DNA of 11,661 bases from a virus. The DNA is taken from UHGV virus genome UHGV-0318018; one strand, written 5' to 3'. Every line of letters starts with the position of its first letter. The stretch's first letter is position 1. This document shows positions 1-11,661 of this stretch, in pieces. Both the position numbers and the translations under genes were made by a program. The notes below the pieces were generated by a model. It saw only the letters and a list, made by a program, of their open reading frames with translations, was not told the DNA's origin and did no database searches.

Positions 1-23
1 TTGTTGCTGATAATGGCGAACAT

Positions 24-692
24 ATGGACTTCATTGCCGCAAATCAATGCCGGAGTCAGCCGGATGACGCAAAGCGGATAGAGTGTTATGACAAAGCTGT
101 AACTCCAACACGCACCAAAACATTAGAAAAGTTTGAAAGCAGGGATCAATGCAGGGATGAGGCGTGGGAGAAAAAAAGGCTGTCTTGCTATGATCGTTTT
201 TTTTCTCCAACATTTACTAATGCCAAGGTTGACAATGTACATAAAGACAGTAGGGATGTTGGGGACTGGAAAGTTGATATAAAAACATCTCCAATCGATG
301 ACTCTAAAAATGTTGTTATCTTTGTGAATGGTAATGATTCTTTTAGGTCCCCGTTTGGAGACAACATAACTCCAACTCTTTATATTGCGTGTAGGGAAAA
401 TAAAACAGAGCTGTTTATAGATTGGGATGTATACTTGGGGCTGAGTGAAACTACGATGATTCATCGAATAGATAAACAAAAAGCCATAAACAGAAAGTGG
501 TCTATTTCAACAAATACAAAGGCCGTCTTTTATGATGGTAATGTGATTGATTTTATAAGAAAGTTACAAAGTGGTAATCAGTTATTTGCTCAGATAACCC
601 CATATAGTGAAAGTCCGGTGAGCACAACCTTTAATCTCAAAGGTCTTTCTGAAGTTATTAAACCATTACAAGAATCATGTAACTGGAAATAG
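24..692 (+). CDS. Hypothetical protein in an AT-rich accessory gene; possibly 5'-truncated by the window edge
   Basis: 222-codon ORF, stop TAG at 690-692. The frame is open from position 3, so the true start may lie upstream. Composition is visibly more AT-rich than the phage tail genes. Contains a duplicated motif C-x9-R-[IL]-x-C-Y-D (CRSQPDDAKRIECYD and CRDEAWEKKRLSCYD). No family recognised by eye. Confidence 0.5.
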   Translation: MDFIAANQCRSQPDDAKRIECYDKAVTPTRTKTLEKFESRDQCRDEAWEKKRLSCYDRFFSPTFTNAKVDNVHKDSRDVGDWKVDIKTSPIDDSKNVVIFVNGNDSFRSPFGDNITPTLYIACRENKTELFIDWDVYLGLSETTMIHRIDKQKAINRKWSISTNTKAVFYDGNVIDFIRKLQSGNQLFAQITPYSESPVSTTFNLKGLSEVIKPLQESCNWK

Positions 693-719
693 CTATTGGT
701 GTTGTTTTCCGAATAATAA

Positions 720-752
720 CCCCGCGATTGTATATAGCGGGGTTATTATTTT
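720..752. terminator. Bidirectional rho-independent terminator between convergent genes
   Basis: Stem CCCCGC (720-725) pairs with GCGGGG (737-742) around an 11-nt loop, followed by TTATTATTTT (743-752) on + and a T-rich run on the - strand. Sits between the stop of the 24-692 ORF and the stop of the 770-1066 ORF. Confidence 0.5.
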
Positions 753-769
753 GGCCTGATTGTCAGGTA

Positions 770-1066
770 TCAGCCATATTTGCGGGCGAAATCTTCATCT
801 GAGGTGCATAGATAGATAAAAAATTCAATAAAAGCCACGATTGCCGGGATAAATGTCCAGCAAAAAATAAGGTAAAGAAATCCCTGCCCCACTTTACCTA
901 AATAAAATTTGTGTGCACCAAGACCACCTAAAAAGAAAGCCAGTAGTGCGGCTGTCATTCTGCTTTTTGAACTTGCTGTTCTTTGAGGTGCTCCACAATT
1001 GGGGCAGGATGTGGCATCTTTATGTATTTCCTTGCCGCATCCGCGGCAAAATACCATTTCACTCAT
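770..1066 (-). CDS. Small membrane protein with N-terminal zinc-ribbon (CxxC...CxxC) and TM2-like hydrophobic C-terminal domain
   Basis: 98-codon ORF. N-terminus CRGCG...CPNCG is a C4 zinc ribbon, followed by two hydrophobic segments (LLAFFLGGLGAHKFYLG and LYLIFCWTFIPAIVAFIEFFIYL). SD-like AAGGA sits 7 nt upstream of the ATG at 1066. Confidence 0.6.
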   Translation of the reverse strand: MSEMVFCRGCGKEIHKDATSCPNCGAPQRTASSKSRMTAALLAFFLGGLGAHKFYLGKVGQGFLYLIFCWTFIPAIVAFIEFFIYLCTSDEDFARKYG

Positions 1067-1170
1067 AAAGAGTTCCTTTCAAATTTAAACAAGCGTTAAG
1101 CCCACCACTCTTACTGGCGGGCCTCAATTTAAATTTGGGTGCCACTTCGACCTTACCCTGGCAACCGATT

Positions 1171-1192
1171 GACGGGGGATTGCTCCCCCGTC
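1171..1192. other. Perfect 9-bp stem hairpin (GACGGGGGA-TTGC-TCCCCCGTC) in the hok 3' flank
   Basis: Read directly from the sequence. Followed on + by GCGGTTTCC. Could be a transcript 3' structure of the hok mRNA or a terminator; function not established. Confidence 0.3.
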
Positions 1193-1201
1193 GCGGTTTC
1201 C

Positions 1202-1342
1202 TTACTGCTTACACTGTAAGAACGCCGCAAACTCCGCTCCCCAGAAGCTCATCCGTATTTCGCACAGCGAACCGTGCAGCATCCAGATGATGAGGATTGC
1301 CGTCACGCAGAACGTGATGGCCGTAAGCGATTTTTGCGACAT
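1202..1342 (-). CDS. hok: Hok/Gef-family type I toxin (small membrane-depolarising peptide)
   Basis: Hand translation of the - strand gives ATG(1342-1340) MSQKSLTAITFCVTAILIIWMLHGSLCEIRMSFWGAEFAAFLQCKQ stop TAA(1204-1202), 46 aa. It has an N-terminal TM helix followed by the SLCEIR motif and an E-x-AAF C-terminal region typical of Hok/HokA-E peptides. AAGGAG SD lies 8 nt upstream. It is absent from the ORF track because it is under 60 aa. Confidence 0.6.
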   Translation of the reverse strand: MSQKSLTAITFCVTAILIIWMLHGSLCEIRMSFWGAEFAAFLQCKQ

Positions 1343-1472
1343 AGCACTTGCTCCTTTTCCGGAGAGGCGCTAACCTTTCACTTGTCAAGGTAATGCGGTT
1401 AGGGCCTCGGTTAAACAGAAATGTTTTCCGGGGCCTTTCCACATCTGGCCTTCGGGTATTCCCTCCGACCAT
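1209..1472 (-). CDS. mok-like overlapping reading frame (modulation of killing) covering the hok gene in another frame
   Basis: 87-codon ORF that starts 130 nt upstream of the hok ATG and ends 7 nt before the hok stop, in a different frame. This geometry matches the mok/hok arrangement of plasmid R1. The sequence itself is not conserved enough to confirm. Confidence 0.3.
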   Translation of the reverse strand: MVGGNTRRPDVERPRKTFLFNRGPNRITLTSERLAPLRKRSKCYVAKIAYGHHVLRDGNPHHLDAARFAVRNTDELLGSGVCGVLTV

Positions 1473-1532
1473 CAGCCGAAAGGCACCCGCGCGTAATCTA
1501 TCGCTTTTTTGTTACTCCGGCAATTCTGTTAG

Positions 1533-1793
1533 TTAATTCTGAGATAAAGGCAAACTCATCTGATTGTTTCCCCTGTGTGAAGCTGGCAGCTCATGCCACG
1601 GGATACCTTCTGAAGAGTGAACGCCGGAGGCGTGTTTTGATGTGAATTTATGGAAAGCTTCCAGTGTTGAGAAGCATACGCCGCATTCCAGGTTGTTACA
1701 CTGGTAATACTTTTGCCGCACGGTGTTTGAATCATTTTCCGGACGACTGGTGCGGATACGGGCAGATGCGCCACAAAGCGGACAACGGAACAT
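1533..1793 (-). CDS. ogr: Ogr/Delta-family zinc-finger late transcription activator
   Basis: 86 aa beginning MFRCPLCG...YYQCNNLECGVCF, with the four Cys of the Ogr zinc finger at positions 4, 7, 32 and 37. Strong SD AAGGGAGG sits 5 nt upstream of the ATG at 1793. Lies immediately downstream of gpD as in P2. Confidence 0.85.
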   Translation of the reverse strand: MFRCPLCGASARIRTSRPENDSNTVRQKYYQCNNLECGVCFSTLEAFHKFTSKHASGVHSSEGIPWHELPASHRGNNQMSLPLSQN

Positions 1794-1835
1794 AGCGACC
1801 TCCCTTAACGTGGTGCTGCTGCTATTCTAAGTTGC

Positions 1836-2945
1836 TCACTCTGTTTCTGCTATCCATTCCGGGATTTTTGCCTCAAGCTCAAGCTGCGTGGTAAAGCCGC
1901 TGTTATCGATGGTGTGCTCGGCTTTTGCAATAATCCAGTCCTGATTATCAATCTCGCTTTTAAATCCTGTTACCGTGCCATGCATTTCGGGGTAGAGTTC
2001 TGCACGACCACGTGCCAGCGTGATGGAGAATGATGCGGCTCCGCGTTGTAGCTGCTGCCACTTTGCCGCCGCTGCGCGTCTTGCTGCCTGCTCGTTCTGA
2101 TAAGTCTTGCGTAACACAAACACATTGCCTTCCGCGCCTTCCATATAATCACCTTCACGGCTGCTGCTTTTCTCCTTTTTGGGTTTTGGCGGTTTGCGGC
2201 GTTTCACGCTGACTTTTTTCTTTTTCCCGTAATTAAGATCAAGCCAGTAAGCGCGTACCCCCGTATACGCCTCGCGGTCAGCAATGCGGAACTGATGGCG
2301 ATCGCCGCTACTGCGTGTGATGGCGAACGATGGCAACGGCTGGCCCTGTGCGTTCACGCCACCGCCGGGCATGATGAATAACAGATTACCGCTTTTTACC
2401 GTGGTGATTGCGCCCAGCATTTCCGCCATGCGCGTAAGGAAGGACATGTCACTTTCTTCGGTCTGGTCGGCGTGGTCGATTTCGATATCCATCAGCATTT
2501 CGCTGATTTGCGGTTTCAGACCGTACCGATGAGCGATGGCGGATACCACACGCTCAACGGTCACATCATGCCAGGACACCTCACGTTTAACGTTAAATTC
2601 ATCCCGAAAATCTGCGCTTCTGGCTGAAACAGTCAGCCTGTCCGGCGGTCCTTCGTGAGCGATTTCATCAACAATGTAAGTGCCTTTTTCTGTCAGCGGT
2701 TCTCCTTTCCAGCCAATGAGAACCGTCAGGCGCGCGCCCCGTGGCGGTAGCTGCAACTGACCATCTGCATCATCCAGCGTGATGGTGAGCTGGTCTGCTT
2801 CAAATCCCCGGTTGTCGGTCAGTGACAGGCTCATCAGGCGCTCTGCCACGCCTGACAGCGTTTTACCCTCCGCGAGAATATCAAAATCCGGCATTTTCAC
2901 GGGGTCTGTGCTCTGACTGAGCAATTGCATGGTGGTGTCGGTCAT
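1836..2945 (-). CDS. P2 gpD-like tail protein (late control gene D family)
   Basis: Long ORF 1836-2966. The preferred start is the ATG at 2945 (MTDTTMQLL...), preceded by GGGAGGG at 5-nt spacing. Size (about 369 aa) and position next to ogr match P2 gpD. Contains an unusual Lys/Arg-rich patch GKKKKVSVKRRKPPKPKKEK. Confidence 0.85.
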   Translation of the reverse strand: MTDTTMQLLSQSTDPVKMPDFDILAEGKTLSGVAERLMSLSLTDNRGFEADQLTITLDDADGQLQLPPRGARLTVLIGWKGEPLTEKGTYIVDEIAHEGPPDRLTVSARSADFRDEFNVKREVSWHDVTVERVVSAIAHRYGLKPQISEMLMDIEIDHADQTEESDMSFLTRMAEMLGAITTVKSGNLLFIMPGGGVNAQGQPLPSFAITRSSGDRHQFRIADREAYTGVRAYWLDLNYGKKKKVSVKRRKPPKPKKEKSSSREGDYMEGAEGNVFVLRKTYQNEQAARRAAAAKWQQLQRGAASFSITLARGRAELYPEMHGTVTGFKSEIDNQDWIIAKAEHTIDNSGFTTQLELEAKIPEWIAETE

Positions 2946-3101
2946 CTTTCCCTCCCTGTGCGGCATGGTCGCATGTGCGTGCGGAGGGGGTTACTGCTTT
3001 TTGTTGTCGCCGTGGCGGGAGAACGGCGCAGGGGTGAGATTACGCGCGTGGTGGGTGATGATTGTTGCCGAATCATTTAACGGATACAAGGGGCTGAAGC
3101 T
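2946..3101. promoter_or_regulatory. Divergent intergenic region expected to carry promoters for D-ogr (leftward) and the FI-U operon (rightward)
   Basis: 156-bp gap between divergent start codons, each with a good SD. No exact Ogr box (TGT-N12-ACA) was found by eye, so promoter positions are not assigned. Confidence 0.35.
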
Positions 3102-4286
3102 ATGAGTGAAACTCGTTTTCATGGTGCCCGTGTCACGGAAAGTACCGACCTGGTAACAGCGGTTAATGATGTTGATTCCAGCGTTATCGGTATCGTGGCA
3201 ACGGCGGATGATGCGGATGCGGAGCTGTTCCCGCTGAACAAGCCCACACTGCTGACCCGCGTCAATGACGTGCTGGGAAAATGCGGTACTACGGGGACGC
3301 TTTATCGTGCGCTTAAGGCTATCGCAGACCAGGTGAGCACAAAGGTGATCGTCGTTCGCGTGGCTGAACACAAAAAAGAAGGCGGTAAGACGCAGGATCA
3401 ACTGGTTATCGGTGGTTCTGAGGATGACGGCAGCTATACGGGGATGTATGCGCTGCTTGTTGCAGAGCAGGATGAAAGCATCGGATACCGTCCGCGCATT
3501 CTGGCTGCGCCGGAGCTGGACACGGAGGCGGTGACAAAATCTCTGTGCGTGATTGCAGGTAAACTGCGCGCGTTTGTGTATGCCTCATGTCATGGCTGTG
3601 ACACGATGGCCGAGGCAATTACCTACCGCCAGAAATTCAACGAACGTGAGGTGATGCTCTTATGGCCGGACTTTATCGCCTACAACCCGAAAAGTGGCAA
3701 AAACGAAACGTTCCCCGCGCCTGCCTATGCGTGCGGCCTTCGTGCGTACATTGACCATGAGCAGGGCTGGCACAAATCGCTGTCCAACGTTCCGGTTAAA
3801 AATGTGCTGGGGATGTCCAGGCATGTGTTCTGGTCGTTGCAGGCCGAAGACAGTGATGCCAACAGCCTCAACAACAAAGAAATCACGACCATTATTCGTC
3901 GCAACGGGTTCCGCTTCTGGGGCAACCGCACACCGGAAACGAACGCCTACATCTTTGAGGTGTATACCCGAACCGCACAGGTGCTGGCTGATTCAATTGC
4001 GGAAGCGCAGTTTGAAACCATCGACAGTCCACTGACGCCTGCGAATGTGAAGGATGTTATCAGTGCCATCAGGGCAAAACTGGATTCACTGGTTACTGCC
4101 GGGAAACTGATTGGGGCGTCGTGCTGGTATGACGTGGTGGATAACGGCACCACGAATTTACGTCAGGGGCGCGTGCGTATTCGCTACAAATATACGCCTG
4201 TTCCCCCGCTGGAAGACATGGAGCTTTACCAGTCGTTTACTGATGAATTCTTTGGTCCCGCATTTGCGGTGCTGGGAGGTGCCTGA
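3102..4286 (+). CDS. Contractile tail sheath protein (P2 gpFI family)
   Basis: 394 aa. Conserved sheath blocks visible, e.g. DADAE.FPLNKP, KLRAF.Y, WPDF.A, EQGWHK.LSNV, IRR.GFRFWGNRT, NYTRTAQV, YTPVPPLE. AAGGGG SD upstream of the ATG. Confidence 0.9.
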   Translation: MSETRFHGARVTESTDLVTAVNDVDSSVIGIVATADDADAELFPLNKPTLLTRVNDVLGKCGTTGTLYRALKAIADQVSTKVIVVRVAEHKKEGGKTQDQLVIGGSEDDGSYTGMYALLVAEQDESIGYRPRILAAPELDTEAVTKSLCVIAGKLRAFVYASCHGCDTMAEAITYRQKFNEREVMLLWPDFIAYNPKSGKNETFPAPAYACGLRAYIDHEQGWHKSLSNVPVKNVLGMSRHVFWSLQAEDSDANSLNNKEITTIIRRNGFRFWGNRTPETNAYIFEVYTRTAQVLADSIAEAQFETIDSPLTPANVKDVISAIRAKLDSLVTAGKLIGASCWYDVVDNGTTNLRQGRVRIRYKYTPVPPLEDMELYQSFTDEFFGPAFAVLGGA

Positions 4287-4798
4287 TGGCTGTACCAAAA
4301 CATCTTCGCTTTTTTACGCTGTTTGTGGATGGTGAAAACGAAGTGGGTAAGGTGACGTCCGTCACTCTACCTAAGCTGACGCGCAAAACCGACAGCTACC
4401 GGGGTGGTGGCATGATGGGTGCGGTAAGTATTGATCTCGGTCTGGACGACTCCGCGCTTGATGCGAGCTTTGTCATGGGGGGCGCAGTTCGTGAGCTGTT
4501 CCTTAAGTATGGCGGCACGATTGACGGCACGCTGCTGCGTTTTGCGGGTGAATACTACACCGATGCAGAAAGCGACCTGTATGAAGTCGAAATGCGCGGA
4601 CGTGTGACGGAAATTGATATGGGGGAAGCCAAACAGGGCGAAGCCACATCACACAATTACGCCATTAAAAACACCTACTACAAGCTGAGTGTTAACGATC
4701 GCCCGTTGTGGGAGATTGACCTGCTGAACTTCATTTACCGGAAGGACGGCAAGGACATTGTGCCCGATCGCATCCGTTCCGCGCTCGGGCTTGGCTGA
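4286..4798 (+). CDS. Tail tube protein (P2 gpFII family)
   Basis: 170 aa. The start overlaps the FI stop by 1 nt (TGATG), with GGGAGG SD. Motifs VTLPKLTRK..YRG.GM and LRFAG.Y are typical of FII tube proteins. Confidence 0.9.
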   Translation: MAVPKHLRFFTLFVDGENEVGKVTSVTLPKLTRKTDSYRGGGMMGAVSIDLGLDDSALDASFVMGGAVRELFLKYGGTIDGTLLRFAGEYYTDAESDLYEVEMRGRVTEIDMGEAKQGEATSHNYAIKNTYYKLSVNDRPLWEIDLLNFIYRKDGKDIVPDRIRSALGLG

Positions 4799-4852
4799 TA
4801 AGTAATATGCAGGCGGCGCAGTGCGTCGCCTCTGACTGAAAGGAGTTTCCTG

Positions 4853-5218
4853 ATGAAAGAGACGAAAAACATCGATACCGAAAACACGGTAGTTACTGAC
4901 ACTGTGAAAGAAACCAGTGAGCGTGGCGTAAAACTTACCCAACCAATTGAGCGAGGCGGCGAAAAAATCACGTATGTGGAGATCACCGGGGCTATTGAGC
5001 AGGCTGGATCTCTGCGAGATTTGTCGCTGTCTGATGTGCTGAATCTGAAAGCGGAATCCATGTTTACGCTGCTGTCACGCGTGACATCACCGCGACTGGA
5101 TGAAGTGACGATCAAAAAAATGGCATCCCGTGACTTTATTCAGTTATGTGTGGTTGCCGTAAATTTTTTGAGCGGTGCGGACTCTGGCGGGAAGAACGAA
5201 CAGGCGACGGAAGCCTGA
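4853..5218 (+). CDS. Tail assembly chaperone gpE (zero-frame product)
   Basis: 121-codon ORF with AAAGGAG SD 7 nt upstream. It sits between the tube and tape measure genes and carries a slippery TTTTTTG near its 3' end, as in P2 E. Confidence 0.7.
   Translation: MKETKNIDTENTVVTDTVKETSERGVKLTQPIERGGEKITYVEITGAIEQAGSLRDLSLSDVLNLKAESMFTLLSRVTSPRLDEVTIKKMASRDFIQLCVVAVNFLSGADSGGKNEQATEA
5164..5170 (+). other. Programmed -1 ribosomal frameshift slippery heptamer TTTTTTG (E to E')
   Basis: T TTT TTG in the E frame (codons NFL). The -1 frame continues open to the TGA at 5380-5382. The same heptamer mediates the E/E' frameshift in P2. Confidence 0.6.
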
Positions 5219-5382
5219 TCACGGTTGTGTGCTTTGAGCACATAGAAGACTTTGTGGCGGATATTGCCGCCATTTTTAACTGGTCGCCCGCCGAAATCTT
5301 CATGATGACGCCCGGCGAAGTGGTTAGCTGGCGTGAGCGGGCGGCACTTCGCAGCGGGAATGCAGACAATGAAGACTCTTGA
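5170..5382 (+). CDS. E' extension; the fusion product E+E' is made by a -1 frameshift at 5164-5170
   Basis: The -1 frame is open from the slippery site to 5382 (ERCGLWREE...FVADIAAIFNWSPAEIF...LRSGNADNEDS). This is the G/GT-like chaperone arrangement upstream of the tape measure gene. Confidence 0.6.
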   Translation, partial: ERCGLWREERTGDGSLITVVCFEHIEDFVADIAAIFNWSPAEIFMMTPGEVVSWRERAALRSGNADNEDS

Positions 5383-8176
5383 TATCCGGGTCGCTTTCAG
5401 CGCCGTTGACAGGCTGACCCGGCCTGCCGAAAACGCCCGCCGCCTGATGGGGCAGTTTGGTGACTCCATCCAGCGAACGCAGGGGGCGATCAAAAATCTC
5501 GAGCGTCAGGCGCGATCATTTGAGCGCGCCCGCGACGCTGTCAGTAAAGCGGATGCGGGTATCGTGAAAGCACGACGCCAGCTTAACGCCCTTAATCAGT
5601 TACAACGCACGGGTACAGTGCTCAGCGAAAAACAACAAAAGCTGATGCAGCAGTTAAGCACCCGGCTTGAACGCCTGAATGAATCGCGCACACGGGAAAT
5701 TCAAAAAATGCGGGAGCTTGGCGGAGAGCTGAAACGCCACGGCATTTCCCTGACAGGCAGCGATAACACCATCCAGCAGGCCATCAGACGCACCGAACAG
5801 TACAACAACCAGCTTGAACGCGAACGGCAGGCGCTTGCACGTGTAACGCGGGCGCGTGAGCGGTATTCGCGCGCGCAGGAAACAGCGGGAAAACTGAAAA
5901 CAGGTGGTGCGCTGGCAACTGGTGCGGCAGCGGCGGGCGGCTATGCTGCCGGGCGTTTTTTGCAGCCTGCGATCGGGTTCGGCAAAGAGATGTCCCGCGT
6001 TCAGGCACTGACGCGAATCGACAAAAACAGCCCGCAGTTTAAGGCGCTGCGTGAGCAGGCGTTAAAACTTGGCTCTGAAACACAGTTTACTGCGAGTGAT
6101 GCCGCCAGTGGACAGAGCTTTCTGGCAATGGCTGGTTTTACTCCGCAGGCCATTCAGGCTGCACTTCCCGGCGTGCTGAGCATGGCAACGGCTGGCGGTA
6201 TGGATCTCGGCGAGACGGCGGATATTGGCTCAAATATCCTGACGCAGTTCGGCCTTTCTGCTGACCAGATGGACCGGGTCGGTGACACGCTCACCGCAGC
6301 GTTTACCCGTACCAACACTGACCTTCGCGCACTTGGCGAAACCATGAAATATGCAGGTCCGGTGGCGGGCAAGCTGGGAATATCGCTGGAGCAGGCCGCA
6401 GCGATGGCGGGCGTACTGGCGAATATGGGTATCAGGGGAAGTGATGCCGGGACGGCAATGCGTGCCAGCCTGGCTCGTCTGGCATCACCGCCAAAGGCGG
6501 CGGCAGAAGCTCTGAAAGAGCTGGGCGTGTCCGTCTCTGATGCGAATGGCAAAATGCGCCCGATGGAAGATCTGCTGGCTGACCTTTATAAAGCCACCCG
6601 CAAATACGGGGAAGTTGACCGGGTATCGTTCTTTAAGGACATTGCCGGGGGAGAGGCTTTCACATCGTTTATGGCACTCGTTGATGCGGCGGGTGACGGT
6701 TCCTTACCCAAACTGAGAAAAGAACTTGAGGGCGCACGCGGTGAGGCTGAACGCACGGCAAAGGTGATGGCCGACAACCTTGATGGCGACCTGAAAAATC
6801 TGGACAGCGCATGGGAAGGTCTGCGTATTCGCATTGCAGATCTGATTGACGGTCCGCTGCGTTCTGTCACGCAGTGGCTCACGCGGGTGGTCTCAAAGGT
6901 GACGGCGCTGGCGCAGGCCCATCCGGCACTGACGCGCCAGCTACTGATAGCAGGCGGTGCGCTGCTGGCAATGACTGCAACGGTCGGCTCGTTGTCGCTG
7001 GTTATTGGGGTGCTTTACGGGAAGCTGGCCACCCTGCGTCTTGGTTTCGACATTCTTACCCGGTCAATGAATGTCGTCAGGGTGTTGCCTGCGCTGTGGG
7101 GAATGGTGACGGGTTCCGTTTCTTTACTGGGAGGCGCCATCGGGGCGTTGTTCAGTCCGGTTGGTCTTATCGTGGCTGCGCTTGCCGGAGCTGCCGTTCT
7201 TATCTGGAAATACTGGGATCCCATCAGGGCATTTTTTGCCGGGGTGTTCAGCGGGATTATGGAAAGGCTGACCCCGTTGCGCGAAACCTTTGAACGGTTT
7301 GGTCCTGTTTTTGACGCAATCGGAAGCGGGATCAGCCAGGTGTTTAACTGGTTTAAATCGCTGCTGTCACCGATGGAATCCAGCAAGGAAACGCTGGATA
7401 AATGTACCAGTGCTGGCGAGATATTCGGTAACGTTCTTGGTGGCGCGTTACAACTTGTTCTGACGCCTGCAAAAATGCTGCTGGATACGCTGGCGTGGAT
7501 ACTTGAAAAACTTGGCGTCCTTCCGGATGAAGCGGAAAGGGCGCGCAAGAAAATCGAAGACGCACAGCGTGCGGCCATTCTTCAGGACAAGGTTGCCTTG
7601 CTTCAGGGGGACCTGGCGAAAATCAATCCGCCGAAGCCTGTGGAAAATGGCAATGGCACCGGAGGTGATAAACCCAAAGACAACAAACCGCTCACAGACA
7701 GCAATACCGGGACGCTACGCAGACTCAGCAAAATTGCTGATAACACAGGTAAGCTGGTTGATGAGACGAAAAAACGCATTGGCCCCGGCGATATTGTCTT
7801 TAAGAACCTGCCCCGCGCACTTGCTGTTCGTGGGGAGTGGCAGGAGCGGAAGATTGCGCAGGTCAGTAAGTCTGCCCCCGCAATGAATATCACACCCGTG
7901 GTTCCGGCTCCGCTGCCTCCGGCGCTGGTCCCTGTTGTTGCGACCAGCTCCCGCCCGGTGGCAGAGGCCATACGATCGCCAGTGGCATCAGTTCCTGCAA
8001 CTTCCCGTAACCGGGAACCTGTTGCCTCCGGATTTGGCGGTGAAATTCATGTTCATCTGCATAACGTTGTTACGCAGAATCCCCGCGAACTGGCGAAACT
8101 GGTCGGTGAAATGGTCAGGGCAGAAATGGAACGGCGCGCCCGTGCCGGGCGTGGCAGTTTTTACGATAAAGATTGA
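5369..8176 (+). CDS. Tail tape measure protein (P2 gpT family)
   Basis: Long ORF open from the GTG at 5333; in-frame ATGs at 5360 and 5369. 5369 is preferred because GGGAA lies 8 nt upstream. Shows a coiled-coil-rich N-terminus, a TMP core (DLRALGETMKYAGPVAGKLGISLEQAAAMAGVLANMGIRGSDAGTAMRASLARL) and Gly/Ala-rich hydrophobic segments. Confidence 0.85.
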   Translation: MKTLDIRVAFSAVDRLTRPAENARRLMGQFGDSIQRTQGAIKNLERQARSFERARDAVSKADAGIVKARRQLNALNQLQRTGTVLSEKQQKLMQQLSTRLERLNESRTREIQKMRELGGELKRHGISLTGSDNTIQQAIRRTEQYNNQLERERQALARVTRARERYSRAQETAGKLKTGGALATGAAAAGGYAAGRFLQPAIGFGKEMSRVQALTRIDKNSPQFKALREQALKLGSETQFTASDAASGQSFLAMAGFTPQAIQAALPGVLSMATAGGMDLGETADIGSNILTQFGLSADQMDRVGDTLTAAFTRTNTDLRALGETMKYAGPVAGKLGISLEQAAAMAGVLANMGIRGSDAGTAMRASLARLASPPKAAAEALKELGVSVSDANGKMRPMEDLLADLYKATRKYGEVDRVSFFKDIAGGEAFTSFMALVDAAGDGSLPKLRKELEGARGEAERTAKVMADNLDGDLKNLDSAWEGLRIRIADLIDGPLRSVTQWLTRVVSKVTALAQAHPALTRQLLIAGGALLAMTATVGSLSLVIGVLYGKLATLRLGFDILTRSMNVVRVLPALWGMVTGSVSLLGGAIGALFSPVGLIVAALAGAAVLIWKYWDPIRAFFAGVFSGIMERLTPLRETFERFGPVFDAIGSGISQVFNWFKSLLSPMESSKETLDKCTSAGEIFGNVLGGALQLVLTPAKMLLDTLAWILEKLGVLPDEAERARKKIEDAQRAAILQDKVALLQGDLAKINPPKPVENGNGTGGDKPKDNKPLTDSNTGTLRRLSKIADNTGKLVDETKKRIGPGDIVFKNLPRALAVRGEWQERKIAQVSKSAPAMNITPVVPAPLPPALVPVVATSSRPVAEAIRSPVASVPATSRNREPVASGFGGEIHVHLHNVVTQNPRELAKLVGEMVRAEMERRARAGRGSFYDKD

Positions 8177-8188
8177 GGAGTCATGGCC

Positions 8189-8677
8189 ATGATGATGATC
8201 TACGGCATGTTTGTTTTTGAGCTGCGCACGCTGCCGCATCAGCAGTTACAGCAAAACAAAAGCTGGCGGCATGTGAAAAATGAACGCGTTAACCGTTCAG
8301 CAAGCTGGCAGTATATCGGTGCAGGTGATGATCGCATCGTGCTTTCTGGTGTGCTTTATCCTGAAATTACAGGTGGCGAAGTGTCGCTGTCGCTGCTGAC
8401 CACGCAGGCGTATACAGGACACCCCTGGCCTCTGATTGATGGCGTCGGGCAGATTTACGGCATGTATGTCCTGACCGACACGAATACGACCCGTTCCGAG
8501 TTTGATTGCTACGGCAAGGCGAAAAAGATAGAGTTTTCACTGACACTTGAACGCTGTGATGAAGATTTGCGGGAGCGACTACAATCCTCATCGTTCAGCG
8601 ATATGCTGTCCGGCCTCAAAGATAAGGTGACGTCATCCCTTAACAGCGCGGCCAGCTCCGTTAAAGGGCTGTTTTGA
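8189..8677 (+). CDS. Tail protein gpU (P2 U family)
   Basis: ORF from 8183 (MAMMMIYGMFVFELRTLPHQQLQQNKSWRH...). The ATG at 8189 is favoured because GAGGAG at 8175-8180 then has 8-nt spacing. Motifs LQQ..SWRH and LSG.LYPE.TGG are shared with P2 gpU. Confidence 0.85.
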   Translation: MMMIYGMFVFELRTLPHQQLQQNKSWRHVKNERVNRSASWQYIGAGDDRIVLSGVLYPEITGGEVSLSLLTTQAYTGHPWPLIDGVGQIYGMYVLTDTNTTRSEFDCYGKAKKIEFSLTLERCDEDLRERLQSSSFSDMLSGLKDKVTSSLNSAASSVKGLF

Positions 8678-8684
8678 TTAACGC

Positions 8685-8714
8685 AAAACCGCTAATGGTC
8701 AGATTAGCGGTTTT
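8685..8714. terminator. Bidirectional terminator hairpin between U and the invertase gene
   Basis: AAAACCGCTAAT (8685-8696) pairs with ATTAGCGGTTTT (8703-8714) around a 6-nt loop, with T-runs on both strands. The invertase stop codon lies within the right arm. Confidence 0.5.
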
Positions 8715-9303
8715 CATTTTCCTGAGTCTGCCTGGTTGTTTCTTCAGCCTGTATATCGCCTACAGGGTGATAACGATAAATCGTCGATATGCCGATGTCG
8801 TAAATGATCGCCAGTTGTTTCCTGTCATGACCGTTTTTAATCAGCCTCGCTATTTGCTCGTGTTGTTCTTTTGTCAACTTCGGGCGACGTCCGCCAATGC
8901 GTCCTTGTGCGCGTGCTGCTGCCAGCCCGGCCAGTGTACGCTCTACAATTAATTCACGTTCCATTTCGGCTAAAGCCCCCATGACGTGAAAAAAGAAACG
9001 CCCCATGGGTGTTGATGTGTCAATGCTGTCCGTCAGACTACGGAAATTAACACCTTTTTCCCGCAATTCCTCAATAAGCGTGATCAGGTGTTTCATACTT
9101 CTGCCCAGTCTGTCCAGCTTCCAGACAACCAGCGTATCTCCTTCTGATAGCGTTCTGAGCAGTTTTTTCAATCCCGGTCTGGCTGATTTCGTTCCGCTGA
9201 TTTTATCTTCAAAAATCAGTTCACATCCTGCGCAGTTCAGTGCATTGCGTTGTAAATCCGTGTTTTGGTCATTTGTTGACACACGAATATAGCCAATTTG
9301 CAT
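8704..9303 (-). CDS. Serine DNA invertase, Pin/Gin/Cin/Hin family
   Basis: The true start is the ATG at 9303 (MQIGYIRVSTNDQNTDLQRNAL...), with AAAGAGGA SD. Resolvase catalytic N-terminus with active-site Ser in GYIRVSTNDQ, plus the motifs LVVWKLDRLGRS, GRFFFHVMGALAEMERELIVERTLAGLAAARAQGRIGGRRP and a C-terminal HTH. The longer ORF-track start at 9432 is an upstream artefact. Confidence 0.9.
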   Translation of the reverse strand: MQIGYIRVSTNDQNTDLQRNALNCAGCELIFEDKISGTKSARPGLKKLLRTLSEGDTLVVWKLDRLGRSMKHLITLIEELREKGVNFRSLTDSIDTSTPMGRFFFHVMGALAEMERELIVERTLAGLAAARAQGRIGGRRPKLTKEQHEQIARLIKNGHDRKQLAIIYDIGISTIYRYHPVGDIQAEETTRQTQENENR

Positions 9304-9357
9304 AAAAAACATCCTCTTTGTTTCGTGAAAAATACATAGTTGGTATAGGTAGGGATA

Positions 9358-9383
9358 AAGACGAAAACGTTGGTTTAGGAGAA
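9358..9383. promoter_or_regulatory. Candidate 26-bp invertase crossover site (cix/gix-like), overlapping the invertase promoter region
   Basis: AAGACGAAAACG-TT-GGTTTAGGAGAA. The right half, read on the other strand, is TTCTCCTAAACC, resembling Hin-family half-sites (TT.TC..AAACC). The left half is degenerate. It lies 55-80 bp upstream of the invertase ATG, where gixR/cixL-type sites sit. Not verified. Confidence 0.25.
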
Positions 9384-9521
9384 GGCTCGGCGCTACCCGT
9401 TGGTGTGCCTGTTCCGTGGCCCACCGCCACACCGCCAGCAGGCTGGTTAAAGTGCGACGGGCGCGCCTTTACAAAAGAACAATATCCTGTTCTGGCCAGA
9501 GTCTACCCGACCCTCCGTCTT
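9366..9521 (+). pseudogene. Tail-fibre collar fragment (NVGLGEGSALPVGVPVPWPTATPPAGWLKCDGRAFTKEQYPVLARVYPTLRL), truncated at a recombination junction
   Basis: Conserved tail-fibre collar motif G.P.PWP..PAGWL.C.G..F....YP.LA..YP. Homology ends abruptly at 9521/9522, where inverted repeat IR-A begins. There is no start codon and no N-terminal shaft. Confidence 0.45.
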
Positions 9522-9631
9522 ATATCAGCACGGCACCTGAAATCAGCTGGCCGGAAGCGCCACTGGCACTTGCCAGCTGAACGGTATCACGCCGCCCTCA
9601 CGATATAGTTAAACGCGATATTGCGGGGGCG
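9522..9631. repeat. IR-A left arm (110 bp), inverted copy of 10103-10212
   Basis: Reverse complement of 10103-10212 with 4 mismatches by hand alignment. Contains the fibre 3' end (RPRNIAFNYIVRAA stop) on the - strand and a Tfa 3' end on the + strand. Confidence 0.85.
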
Positions 9632-10148
9632 GGTTATGTTAAAGAATGCTCCGTTTAATTCGGCTTTTGCGCGACTGTTTGTTCCACCCAGAATTGCGTA
9701 CCACTTGCCTGTTGGTGTGCCTGTTCCGTGGCCCACCGCCACACCGCCAGCAGGCTGGTTACAGTGCAACGGAGCTACGTTCACCAAAGGACAATATCCT
9801 GTTCTGGCCAGAGTCTACCCGACCCTCCGTCTTCCCGATTTGCGCGGTGAGTTTATCCGTGGATGGGACGGTGGTCGCAAGGTTGATACCGGGCGTGCGC
9901 TACTTTCATTTCAGGAAGGGACTATCGTATCCGGTTTTGATGATAATGATACCGGAGATATCAGTTCGCTCGGCTCTACACAATATGGATTTGGTGACGC
10001 TTTAACCTCTAATCAACTGGGGGTCATAAATGACAAAAAGTGGATATTTGATGCATCCTCTAAAGGTGCACAAAGATATGACTGGTGGGCTTATGTATCA
10101 GCTCGCCCCCGCAATATCGCATTTAACTATATCGTGAGGGCGGCGTGA
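9621..10148 (+). CDS. Tail-fibre C-terminal cassette 1 (collar plus receptor-binding tip), lacking the N-terminal shaft
   Basis: Open frame containing LPVGVPVPWPTATPPAGWLQCNGATFTKGQYPVLARVYPTLRLPDLRGEFIRGWDGGRKVDTGRA..., ending RPRNIAFNYIVRAA. Collar motifs match Mu S / P1 S / P2 H-type fibres. Only a TTG or an internal ATG (9636) is available as a start, so it is probably silent unless fused to a constant region. Confidence 0.55.
   Translation: MRGRVMLKNAPFNSAFARLFVPPRIAYHLPVGVPVPWPTATPPAGWLQCNGATFTKGQYPVLARVYPTLRLPDLRGEFIRGWDGGRKVDTGRALLSFQEGTIVSGFDDNDTGDISSLGSTQYGFGDALTSNQLGVINDKKWIFDASSKGAQRYDWWAYVSARPRNIAFNYIVRAA
9756..9870. repeat. IR-B left arm (115 bp, collar-coding), inverted copy of 11098-11212
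   Basis: Reverse complement of 11098-11212 with 2 mismatches. Encodes WLQCNGATFTK.QYPVLARVYPTLRLPDLRGEFIRGWD in both cassettes. Confidence 0.85.
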
Positions 10149-10212
10149 TACCGTTCAGCCGGCAAGCGCCAGTGGCGCTTCCGGCCAGCTGATTTCAGGT
10201 GCCTTGCTGATA
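10103..10212. repeat. IR-A right arm (110 bp)
   Basis: See IR-A left arm. Spans the convergent 3' ends of cassette 1 (+) and the tail-fibre assembly gene (-). Confidence 0.85.
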
Positions 10213-10769
10213 TTCAGTGCGTTCAGCTCGTCGATATAATCCAGCACGGCGTTCAGTTTTGCCGTTTCTTCTGGTGTCAGACTGCGACCAGCACGCAGTT
10301 TGAGGTTGATAAGATCGACGGACGCCATCGCCTGTTTCACCCGTTGCTGGCGTTGCTGTCTGGCAACCTCCAGTTCTGCGGCTCGCTGCCGTTCAGTATC
10401 GGTTACCCACGCCTCACCGTTCCAGGTATCCCATGGCGTGGCTGGCTGTTTTGTGGTGGTGTCCGCCGGGTAATCACCCGGTTGGGTAATCAGAACGGGG
10501 TTACCGTTCTCCGTGCTGTATACCGTCTCGCCGCGGTGATCAGGCACATGCTCCCACCCGTTCAGCGTGGCAGTCCGGCAAACCACGTAACCCGAAATTG
10601 CCTCCGGCGGTGCATCGGCGCACGAATGTGCCGGAGTACCCACCCCAAGGGCGAGATACTCCACAGAGGATGAGGTGTATTCCCGGGTTTCCTCGTCATA
10701 GTGATATACAGTGATATCGCCCGCTACAGTGGCGATACCGTTTTCATCCAGAACTGCAGTGTTACTCAT
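10155..10769 (-). CDS. Tail fibre assembly protein (Tfa / P2 gpG / Mu U-like chaperone)
   Basis: 204 aa. The ATG at 10769-10767 overlaps the stop of cassette 2 (TAATG), with GAGGG SD. The C-terminal half (TDTERQRAAELEVARQQRQ...PEISWPEAP) has the acidic/coiled-coil and WPE features typical of Tfa chaperones. Confidence 0.8.
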   Translation of the reverse strand: MSNTAVLDENGIATVAGDITVYHYDEETREYTSSSVEYLALGVGTPAHSCADAPPEAISGYVVCRTATLNGWEHVPDHRGETVYSTENGNPVLITQPGDYPADTTTKQPATPWDTWNGEAWVTDTERQRAAELEVARQQRQQRVKQAMASVDLINLKLRAGRSLTPEETAKLNAVLDYIDELNALNISKAPEISWPEAPLALAG

Positions 10770-11220
10770 TAAACTGCCCTCACAATGTAATTAAGTGCAA
10801 TGCTACGGGGTCTGACAGTGATACCCTTCGCATACCCGCTTCTGATAGAGGTCAGAATAGTAGCCTGCATACCATTGTCTGACATTGCCATGACAGGATC
10901 GCTGAATGTTGTCCCGTCCGGCATTTTAAAGCTGCCCTCACGAAGGTCTGTAATGGAATCTTCATTGTTGAATCCCATGCCGACTATCCCCGAGGTTCCC
11001 GTAGTGTCCTGGTTATAATAATCCAGCATTGCTGTTCTTAACAGCGTTGCCCCTTGTGCGGACAGCAACTTACGTCCTGTATCAACTTTGCGCCCGTCGT
11101 CCCATCCACGGATAAACTCACCGCGTAAATCGGGAAGACGGAGGGTCGGGTAGACTCTGGCCAGAACAGGATATTGTTCTTTGGTGAACGTAGCTCCGTT
11201 GCACTGTAACCATGCAACAT
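10769..11220 (-). CDS. Tail-fibre C-terminal cassette 2 (collar plus distinct tip), start-less, translationally coupled to the downstream Tfa
   Basis: Hand translation of the - strand gives one continuous frame: WLQCNGATFTKEQYPVLARVYPTLRLPDLRGEFIRGWDDGRKVDTGRKLLSAQGATLLRTAMLDYYNQD...ITVRPRSIALNYIVRAV stop. It is open back to an in-frame stop at 11245-11243. The ORF-track TTG start at 11068 is internal, and there is no ATG. Confidence 0.55.
11098..11212. repeat. IR-B right arm (115 bp)
   Basis: See IR-B left arm. Confidence 0.85.
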
Positions 11221-11486
11221 TTATTCGTACAGCTTTGCAGGATTATTACGGTTACGATCTGAATACTAATGTCAAAGTAGGTATCGCTTTTGCTACTGCT
11301 GATTCTGTTATAACCGTTGGAAACCCAGCTAATCCTAAAGCAGGAAATAATAGCGATTATGTTCCTGCATCAGCAGATAACTCTATAACGGGTATTCAAA
11401 GGACAGCGGAGGATAATTTTACCGGGGCATGGATATCAATGCGCCCCCGCAATGTTGCGTTTAATTACATCGTAAGGGCCGCATAA
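11211..11486 (+). CDS. Tail-fibre tip cassette 3 (collar-less), start-less
   Basis: Frame reads HATFIRTALQDYYGYDLNTNVKVGIAFATADSVITVGNPANPKAGNNSDYVPASADNSITGIQRTAEDNFTGAWISMRPRNVAFNYIVRAA stop. It aligns with the post-collar part of cassette 2 (ATLLRTAMLDYYNQD...) and shares the C-terminal RPRN.AFNYIVRAA end. There is no in-frame ATG; the ORF-track N-terminus MVNVAPLHCN is the antisense of the collar. Confidence 0.45.
   Translation, partial: HATFIRTALQDYYGYDLNTNVKVGIAFATADSVITVGNPANPKAGNNSDYVPASADNSITGIQRTAEDNFTGAWISMRPRNVAFNYIVRAA
11251..11368. repeat. IR-C left arm (118 bp, perfect), inverted copy of 11544-11661
   Basis: Exact reverse-complement identity over 118 bp, verified base by base. 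The inner end carries a 29-bp near-palindrome GCAGGAAATAATAGCGATTATGTTCCTGC (11340-11368). Confidence 0.9.
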
Positions 11487-11573
11487 AAACGTTGGTTTGG
11501 GGGAAGGCTCTGCATTGCCTGTTGGTGTGCCTGTTCCGTGGCCGCAGGAACATAATCGCTATTATTTCCTGCT
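11476..11573 (+). pseudogene. Truncated collar-start fragment (GPHKNVGLGEGSALPVGVPVPWP) fused at 11543/11544 to inverted cassette sequence
   Basis: Third direct copy of the CTGTTGGTGTGCCTGTTCCGTGGCC collar start. Homology to the other copies ends at 11543, and the frame then runs through the antisense of cassette 3 to a TAG. Confidence 0.4.
11480..11505. promoter_or_regulatory. Second candidate cix/gix-like site, directly after the cassette 3 stop codon
   Basis: CGCATAAAAACG-TT-GGTTTGGGGGAA. The half-site read on the other strand is TTCCCCCAAACC. Same orientation as the 9358-9383 candidate, and followed by the same collar-start sequence. Confidence 0.2.
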
Positions 11574-11661
11574 TTAGGATTAGCTGGGTTTCCAACGGTT
11601 ATAACAGAATCAGCAGTAGCAAAAGCGATACCTACTTTGACATTAGTATTCAGATCGTAAC
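11544..11661. repeat. IR-C right arm (at least 118 bp; truncated by the window end)
   Basis: Exact reverse complement of 11251-11368. On the - strand it encodes the same tip segment (...DLNTNVKVGIAFATADSVITVGNPANPKAGNNSDYVPA), entering from beyond the window. Confidence 0.9.

Follow-up and report, generated by a model that had tools for sequence, protein, structure and literature searches.

VasI/TagO proteins are accessory proteins of type VI secretion systems (T6SS) with no listed role, and the TM2 domain is found in proteins from bacteria to humans. Phages and prophages are known to encode periplasmic or inner-membrane proteins which block the entry of superinfecting phages, such as Sim of P1, Imm and Sp of T4 and the RexAB/SieB-type proteins of lambda. 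We analyzed here a stretch of viral DNA of 11,661 nucleotides (UHGV-0318018; the whole stretch, at its full length, is called the window), the left end of which carries two convergent genes, one for a VasI-family protein and one for a small zinc-ribbon and TM2-domain membrane protein. Both genes are members of known families. Bases 1-1136 are almost certainly the outermost accessory region of a P2-like prophage, lying beyond gpD, ogr and a hok/sok module and made up of two independent AT-rich morons which are split by a likely bidirectional terminator. As a diverged VasI is the conserved terminal gene in a large share of P2-like prophages, the region offers a simple and tractable Escherichia coli setting in which the function of this fold can be studied.

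An accessory region at the end of a P2-like prophage

The left end of the window is contiguous with the ogr-to-gpU genes of a P2-like phage (Peduoviridae), here a P88/Xuanwuvirus-type peduovirus, and lies beyond the flank of the host core genome, which was judged from the related locus L004, the prophage/chromosome junction not being reached by the window. The gene order VasI-TM2-hok-ogr-D-sheath is shared by loci L003 to L006, where it stands beside tamB-ytfP; L003 is 96% identical to the window in nucleotide sequence, and L004 to L006 come from E. coli. When compared with the 5,426 complete E. coli genomes, every one of them matched the ytfP flank only to 28 nt beyond the ytfP stop, and the matched flank ends 146 nt short of the VasI start codon in L004, the closest E. 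coli relative. The VasI gene of the window was found in none of these 5,426 genomes. A tblastn search matched 27 phage records, and VasI homologues of about 50% identity lie within the genomes of phages P88_4B11 (gp37), 500465-2, PhiR44_2, Citrobacter Shae_phiSM and Klebsiella 3LV2017. Since the core flank stops before VasI and homologues reside inside sequenced phage genomes, we rejected the possibility that these are core chromosomal genes, and the proposal of an earlier note on this DNA, that the left end is accessory, was borne out. The same note had remarked that the left kilobase is more AT-rich than the phage tail genes, which is correct: the GC content is 39.1% over 1-1066 against 53.3% over 1533-11661 (37.7% in the VasI part and 42.1% in the TM2 gene), and GC at third codon positions is 33-35% in the left kilobase against 58-60% in gpD, sheath and tape measure.

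The first gene encodes a phage-type member of the VasI family

The product of the first gene had been described as not recognised, but a profile search identified it as a PF11319 (VasI/TagO) protein. It scored 66 bits, where the cut-off is 26.5, and its residues 49-228 covered the entire profile (positions 1-184 of 184). The traits of PF11319 in the broad sense are present, namely C-x8-R-L-x-C-Y-D, a central Cys and a C-terminal C-x-W, together with an export signal which is seen in the full-length relatives only. A search of 5.8 billion proteins returned 79 homologues. The PHROG families matched in the whole analysis (1848, 10292 and 6586, the last being that of a 110-aa zinc-ribbon protein described below) are all labelled 'unknown function'. 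The scores for the TIGR03360 equivalog lie below its cut-off of 124.2 bits, being 59.4 for the window protein, 55.5 for the homologue P0001 and 44-76 for other phage-type relatives. We asked whether the gene might nevertheless be a true TagO/VasI serving the T6SS of the host, as its RefSeq name implies and as PF11319, one CYD motif and the C-terminal C-x-W, all common to T6SS VasI, would allow. The vasI gene of E. coli EDL933, which is located between tssH and tssA of the T6SS cluster (L161), reaches 257.4 bits with TIGR03360, and its product is only 21% identical to P0001 and lacks the SPIDDS and TPYxExPV motifs. Furthermore, no T6SS genes were found in the window or in the roughly 150 related loci that were clustered, no T6SS family recurred among about 70 clustered related loci, and the gene sits in phage genomes. 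A true T6SS TagO was thus rejected on equivalog score and genomic context, and a service to the host T6SS is, in our judgement, hardly tenable. The window gene belongs to a distinct phage-type subfamily of PF11319, for which the record name 'TagO' overstates current knowledge.

The reading frame of this gene is open from base 3, and its first ATG, at 24, would give a product of 222 aa. Full-length relatives of 249-250 aa (94% and 85% identity) start with MRRVFLFTLTCVTTLMSFAVVA followed by DKGE, and residue 1 of the window's open reading frame (ORF) aligns with their residue 21. By this alignment about 60 nt, or some 20 N-terminal codons corresponding to the signal peptide, lie to the left of the window, as had been suspected, and the ATG at 24 is internal. 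Codons 1-2 (V-A) are the end of the predicted signal peptide, the predicted mature protein running from base 9. The signal peptide for which the earlier note had asked to look is predicted to be of the Sec type in the full-length relatives, outside the window itself. A lipoprotein was considered and rejected, as there is no lipobox; P0001 has a Cys at residue 11, but it comes after T-L-T and is not shared by relatives.

The note had also reported two copies of a Cys motif, and both copies are real, but the spacing is x8 and not x9. A single match to C-x8-R-[IL]-x-C-Y-D arises in just one of 200,000 protein shuffles, and the two 30-residue modules built around the motif (CYD modules) align with each other with a score of 69 against 19.5 +/- 4.1 for shuffles. 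In an alignment of 23 relatives the signal peptide is followed by the CYD modules, then by a linker and a conserved domain. The number of modules varies from one to three, the proteins being of about 200-218, 247-250 and 294-298 aa with one, two and three modules, respectively. Within the conserved domain the motifs G-x-W, S-P-I-D-D-S and T-P-Y-x-E-x-P-V are invariant, and the domain also has a second Cys pair (C150/C246 in P0001). The Cys pairs are near-invariant across the relatives, and the divergent P0079 is without any of the cysteines, a joint loss which fits disulfide pairs. The product of the first gene is probably a soluble, disulfide-bonded periplasmic protein. An Rfam match to Plastid-psbA-3 at 164-215 (E 0.029) was dismissed as chance.

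Distribution of VasI in prophages

We surveyed about 150 loci. Among 80 IMG/VR proviruses encoding a VasI relative about 65 are P2-like, and in these VasI is the last provirus gene, following gpD, ogr and, where present, hok; overall, a VasI-family gene is terminal in about 80 of the 88 P2-like loci examined. The three-module form occurs in 240 of the 5,426 complete E. coli genomes. The clade of the window comprises nine loci, in which VasI has two CYD modules and is inverted, pointing inward, and in which the 110-aa zinc-ribbon protein that commonly precedes VasI in other P2-like prophages has been lost, being present in none of the nine. Between the window and Salmonella the identities of VasI, gpD and sheath are 78%, 78% and 82%, and between the window and Enterobacter they are 62%, 60% and 54%. 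The ratio of nonsynonymous to synonymous substitution rates (dN/dS) of VasI in the window's clade is 0.11-0.34, and no positive selection was seen. As the identity of VasI tracks that of gpD and sheath and dN/dS is low, VasI is a long-term, vertically inherited resident of the phage lineage under purifying selection and not recent cargo, in spite of its AT-richness. The proposal that the left end is separately acquired cargo is thereby upheld as far as accessory prophage DNA is concerned, while recent acquisition of VasI does not agree with an identity in step with the tail genes.

Outside the P2-like phages, VasI is found directly downstream of cI/S24 or XRE repressor genes and on the same strand (L079, L085, L074-76 and L083); other positions are upstream of an integrase (L074-76) and among tail genes (L080 and L099). 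In a lambdoid provirus (L085, 5145-6971) a cI-like S24 repressor, VasI (212 aa) and a TM2-domain protein (106 aa, no zinc ribbon) follow one another on one strand, an arrangement which is the classical position of lysogen-expressed exclusion genes. In Izhakiella (L106, 6714-8015) and Phytobacter (L107, 6926-7555) VasI was also observed between cpxP and fieF, away from any phage tail genes, in the former with a partner fragment and a zinc-ribbon/TM2 gene and in the latter alone; these copies look like domesticated prophage-end remnants. In an Orbus prophage (L099, 5510-6633) the tape-measure gene is followed by a tandem pair of secreted IalB/VasI-like paralogues, of which the first (160 aa) has no CYD module. 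It may be noted that a motif AGRD[FY]NEN, seen at the C-terminus of an XRE-type helix-turn-helix protein, recurs at the N-terminus of the membrane protein next to it, both flanking VasI (L074, 4817-5875; L083, 2566-4231).

We also considered whether VasI, like IalB, could serve in virulence or in interaction with a host, as a case of lysogenic conversion aimed at eukaryotic hosts. A machine-learning study does list PF11319 among the Pfam families which mark severe salmonellosis, but the same study also lists T6SS_Vgr, T6SS_VasJ and T6SS_FHA_C, and on our reading PF11319 may merely mark T6SS loci. Moreover, the family is spread in phages whose hosts live in the environment or on plants (such as Pantoea, Pectobacterium and marine taxa), no mechanism is known for IalB either, and in Rhizobiales proteins with an IalB domain also take part in envelope growth. 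We regard such a role as very improbable.

The TM2 gene lies on a separate module

The second gene had been read as encoding a zinc-ribbon and two-helix membrane protein convergent with the first, and this reading stands. The product scores 68.6 bits with PF05154 (TM2; cut-off 27.9), the TM2 domain extending over about 818-970 and a putative four-Cys zinc ribbon (residues 4-27) over about 986-1057. Zn_Ribbon_1 (PF13240 type) gives 24.1 bits, just under its cut-off of 25, and C7-x2-C10 and C21-x2-C24 are present and invariant. The protein contains GGLGAHKFYLG, the core residues H-K-F-Y-L-G of which are invariant in the alignment of TM2 homologues, and has 1,567 homologues across Enterobacterales. 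It is predicted to be a small protein of the inner membrane, the zinc ribbon of which would face the cytoplasm and the TM2 domain of which would form a helical hairpin.

E. coli prophages which carry Com/Mom-like genes in place of VasI match the window with 97% identity from 765 onward, and P88-type phages match it only from 1137. In the Salmonella and Enterobacter members of the inverted clade VasI is joined straight to hok, with about 105 nt between them against 462 nt in the window. The breakpoints at 765 and 1137, together with these direct joins, mark TM2 as a discrete 372-bp module; VasI (to 764), TM2 (765-1136) and hok/sok (from 1137) are separate mosaic modules. TM2 is present in five of the nine loci of the window's clade and absent from L007 and L158-L160; its insertion between VasI and hok is confined to the Escherichia sublineage. 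In another P2-like prophage of E. coli a TM2 gene of 71% identity follows ogr by itself, and the Yersinia chromosome has one of 77% identity between ihfA and btuC.

The inverted repeat between the two genes folds as RNA with -23.8 kcal/mol on the plus strand and -21.8 kcal/mol on the minus strand (z -4.3 and -5.7), and the equivalent hairpin in L004 was flagged as a terminator on both strands. It is likely a bidirectional terminator. The P2 late-promoter dyad TGT-N12-ACA was looked for as well, and even the region between D and FI, which served as control, was without it.

The earlier note had called the TM2 protein the partner of the first gene product. The claim of partnership is not supported for TM2, which is a separate module, missing from four of the nine clade loci and found without VasI elsewhere. 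It may still be argued that VasI and a small zinc-ribbon two-helix inner-membrane protein form a two-component envelope system, TM2 substituting in the window for the usual partner. In keeping with this, the pairing of VasI with the 110-aa partner is the rule in co-directional P2-like loci (see below), the zinc ribbons of the TM2 protein and of that partner are homologous (hhalign 94.7%, 26 columns), and TM2 proteins flank VasI in two unrelated settings, the lambdoid L085 and Izhakiella L106. However, besides the clade loci which have VasI and no TM2, the same TM2 gene occurs at 97-100% identity with Com/Mom-like genes and no VasI, and the genes of 71% and 77% identity stand alone after ogr and in the Yersinia chromosome, respectively. 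In the window the two genes are convergent, split by a terminator and bounded by distinct recombination breakpoints. The membrane parts of the TM2 protein and of the usual partner show no detectable homology, and in each of these two proteins no more than a short loop would reach into the periplasm. A two-component system of this kind therefore seems rather unlikely. Homology of the TM2 protein to the usual partner as a whole was rejected, being limited to the 26-residue zinc ribbon.

The zinc-ribbon and VasI cassette of other P2-like prophages

A cassette at the end of other P2-like prophages consists of VasI, co-directional with ogr, and, directly upstream of it, a gene for a 110-aa protein with a zinc ribbon and two transmembrane helices (ZnR-2TM; PHROG 6586), with a gap of 4-5 nt or an overlap between them. 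It was found in 72 of 74 co-directional P2-like loci, two such loci being without the ZnR-2TM gene, and is held across sheath identities of 54-98%. In RefSeq the 110-aa partner is named 'zinc ribbon domain-containing protein', and no description of the cassette was found in the literature searched. We consider this cassette the most useful by-product of the analysis, as it gives a tractable entry to VasI function.

What really varies is the slot between hok and the terminal cassette. In E. coli FHI_NMBU_03 (L157) this slot holds a RES-family NAD+ phosphorylase toxin (1646-2473), between hok and the cassette. A Salmonella locus (L108, 6355-9976) has two copies of ogr about 1.7 kb apart, the first followed by ZnR-2TM and VasI and the second by a zinc-ribbon/TM2 gene, which look like tandem or recombined P2-like prophage ends.

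Possible function at the cell envelope

The anatomy of VasI (a predicted export signal, disulfide modules and a beta-sandwich of the binding type), its positions beside repressors, its retention in prophage remnants and the purifying selection on it together point to a lysogen-expressed periplasmic protein which acts at the envelope. Expression in the lysogen is suggested in particular by the position downstream of repressors and by the retention in the decayed remnants L106 and L107. Taken as a whole, with the identity of the proteins, the residence of VasI in the prophage and an action at the envelope, we consider this explanation fairly probable. As to the mechanism which seems most likely to us, we propose only tentatively that the VasI-like protein and the TM2 protein would be made from the prophage and would alter the envelope of the lysogen, that the VasI-like beta-sandwich might bind a component of the envelope or else the tip of a contractile injection device on its way in, be it a myophage tail, a tailocin or a T6SS spike, and that this binding might lead to exclusion, as for P1 Sim or T4 Sp/Imm, with TM2 acting separately in the inner membrane.

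Several points weigh against such an envelope function. Export and disulfides are predicted from sequence, with the signal peptide lying outside the window, and the mechanism is drawn from analogy. A VasI promoter was not identified upstream in L003 and L004, so that expression in the lysogen is argued from position in other phages; sigma-70 promoter scans upstream of VasI and TM2 gave nothing convincing either. A PDB sequence search with VasI returned just noise (E ~0.15), with no informative neighbour beyond IalB, and a fold search of BFVD returned uncharacterised phage proteins only. PADLOC-DB 2.0, searched at E up to 0.1, held no match for three variants of VasI, for the two TM2 proteins, for the ZnR-2TM partner or for Hok. 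A 2026 review of the T6SS gives the role of TagO/VasI as 'Unknown', the function of TM2 in bacteria is unknown in the literature, and no mechanism was found in the literature on TagO/VasI, PF11319, TM2 with prophage, or IalB. Finally, the conservation of VasI in step with the tail genes could equally reflect a role in the phage's own lytic cycle, which VasI may have.

The earlier note had regarded such prophage ends as hotspots for anti-phage and other accessory genes. This is right in so far as a 2024 preprint describes the tail-protein-to-CI interval, which takes in the prophage end of the window, as a third P2 hotspot; it is weakened by the absence of PADLOC matches and by the location elsewhere, between gpA and gpQ and at the tail-gene slot, of the P2 defence hotspots that are well studied. 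Anti-phage defence of the abortive-infection type by one or both genes, for example with the zinc-ribbon/TM2 protein as a membrane-disrupting effector and possibly together with Hok, would suit a location within the reported third hotspot, and the neighbouring variable slot does hold toxins (Hok here and the RES toxin in L157). Small zinc-ribbon and transmembrane proteins are also, in general, frequent defence effectors. However, neither VasI, TM2 nor the ZnR-2TM partner has a counterpart in PADLOC, the TM2 family includes a stable chromosomal gene beside ihfA in Yersinia, and VasI is predicted to be periplasmic and is without an enzymatic signature; with the described defence hotspots situated elsewhere, we hold abortive infection to be improbable.

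To return to an envelope action, phage-type VasI, alone or with zinc-ribbon two-helix proteins, could in its widest form be a widespread prophage envelope module, with a terminal place in most Enterobacterales P2-like prophages and a link to repressors in other phages, which blocks penetration by contractile injection machines (superinfecting myophages, tailocins and T6SS spikes), though we think this rather doubtful. If it were true, the T6SS cousin VasI/TagO would be suggested to handle the spike or periplasmic passage in the T6SS. As an exclusion or anti-injection factor, VasI would add a periplasmic layer to prophage-encoded immunity and would connect phage tails with the T6SS in function and not in structure only; if it is not an exclusion factor, the region is an ordinary pair of morons.

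Neighbouring genes and coordinates

Past TM2 the window continues with hok/sok, ogr, gpD, sheath, tube, gpE, tape measure and gpU, followed by an invertase and tail-fibre segment; the coordinates of the main features are given in Table 1. The Hok ORF (1202-1342, minus strand) matches PF01848 with 29.9 bits and PHROG 251 ('MokW-like host killing'), and a sok-like RNA (1329-1488, minus strand) matches Rfam RF01794 with 49.4 bits, the gathering score being 59. The module, which is complete, also has a GC-rich hairpin at 1170-1193. In L004 to L006 an alpha/beta-hydrolase gene is inserted between ogr and gpD (L004, 12204-12962). At the far end of the window a Hin/Gin-type DNA invertase gene (8704-9432, minus strand) adjoins a tail-fibre 'Collar' ORF (9621-10148, plus strand), with a tail-fibre assembly gene (10155-10769, minus strand) in the same segment, and the whole (8704-10769) looks like an invertible host-range switch.

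Table 1. Features at the left end of the window and examples of the related cassette
Feature	Position	Strand	Basis or remark
VasI/TagO-family ORF, 5' end cut by the window edge	3-692 (stop 690-692)	+	PF11319 and full-length relatives
CYD module 1, C-x8-R-I-x-C-Y-D (CRSQPDDAKRIECYD)	48-92	+	Conserved family-wide in alignment of 23 relatives
CYD module 2, C-x8-R-L-x-C-Y-D (CRDEAWEKKRLSCYD)	150-194	+	Aligns with start of Pfam and TIGR profiles
Putative IalB-like beta-sandwich domain	240-689	+	Motifs GxW, SPIDDSKNV, ITPYSESPV and C-terminal C-N-W-K
Inverted repeat, 17-nt arms, 5-nt loop	712-750	.	Between convergent VasI and TM2 genes
TM2 mosaic module, 372 bp	765-1136	.	Homology breakpoints
Zinc-ribbon and TM2-domain ('NINE') membrane protein, 98 aa	770-1066	-	PF05154
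hok/sok type I toxin-antitoxin module	1137-1532	-	Context
ogr	1533-1793	-	Anchors region at P2-like prophage end
gpD	1836-2966	-	Anchors region at P2-like prophage end
ZnR-2TM and VasI cassette, examples	L002 81-1311; L096-98 5664-6657; L157 2984-4214		About 70 other loci

Comparison with described systems

T6SS VasI/TagO (TIGR03360; vasI of EDL933 and VCA0118 of Vibrio cholerae) is similar in size to the window protein and has in common with it PF11319, the N-terminal export signal, the central Cys and the C-terminal PL-x3-C-x-W, together with one C-x8-RL-x-CYD module. It differs in being encoded in a T6SS cluster, whereas the window gene stands at a prophage end, and in having neither of the SPIDDS and TPYxExPV motifs, while the window protein has both of them and two CYD modules. 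IalB of Bartonella (PDB 3dtd, PF06776) is more distant, with 15% identity, a Pfam IalB score of 18.3 against a cut-off of 22.1 and no CYD modules. The zinc-ribbon/TM2 'NINE' proteins (PF05154) resemble the second gene product closely, being 71-100% identical and of 98 aa, with the same architecture and an invariant G-x-H-K-F-Y-L-G; the Yersinia gene, however, is chromosomal, and the gene described here is on a 372-bp phage module.

With P1 Sim, T4 Imm/Sp and the RexAB/SieB-type proteins of lambda the likeness is one of position, their genes lying directly downstream of a repressor as VasI does in L079 and L085; no sequence similarity to Sim or Imm/Sp was seen, and no P1 or T4 records were among the 27 phage records. 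A further comparison is with the P88-like gp36 and gp37 cassette (Xuanwuvirus P88_4B11), annotated as 'zinc ribbon domain protein' and 'TagO' and found in the 240 E. coli genomes mentioned above. Its gp37 has three CYD modules (297 aa), points outward and is translationally coupled to the 110-aa ZnR-2TM gene, whereas the window gene has two modules, is inverted and stands without the ZnR-2TM partner. Both, however, lie beyond ogr/hok, are terminal and AT-rich, and belong to the same VasI subfamily with about 50% identity.

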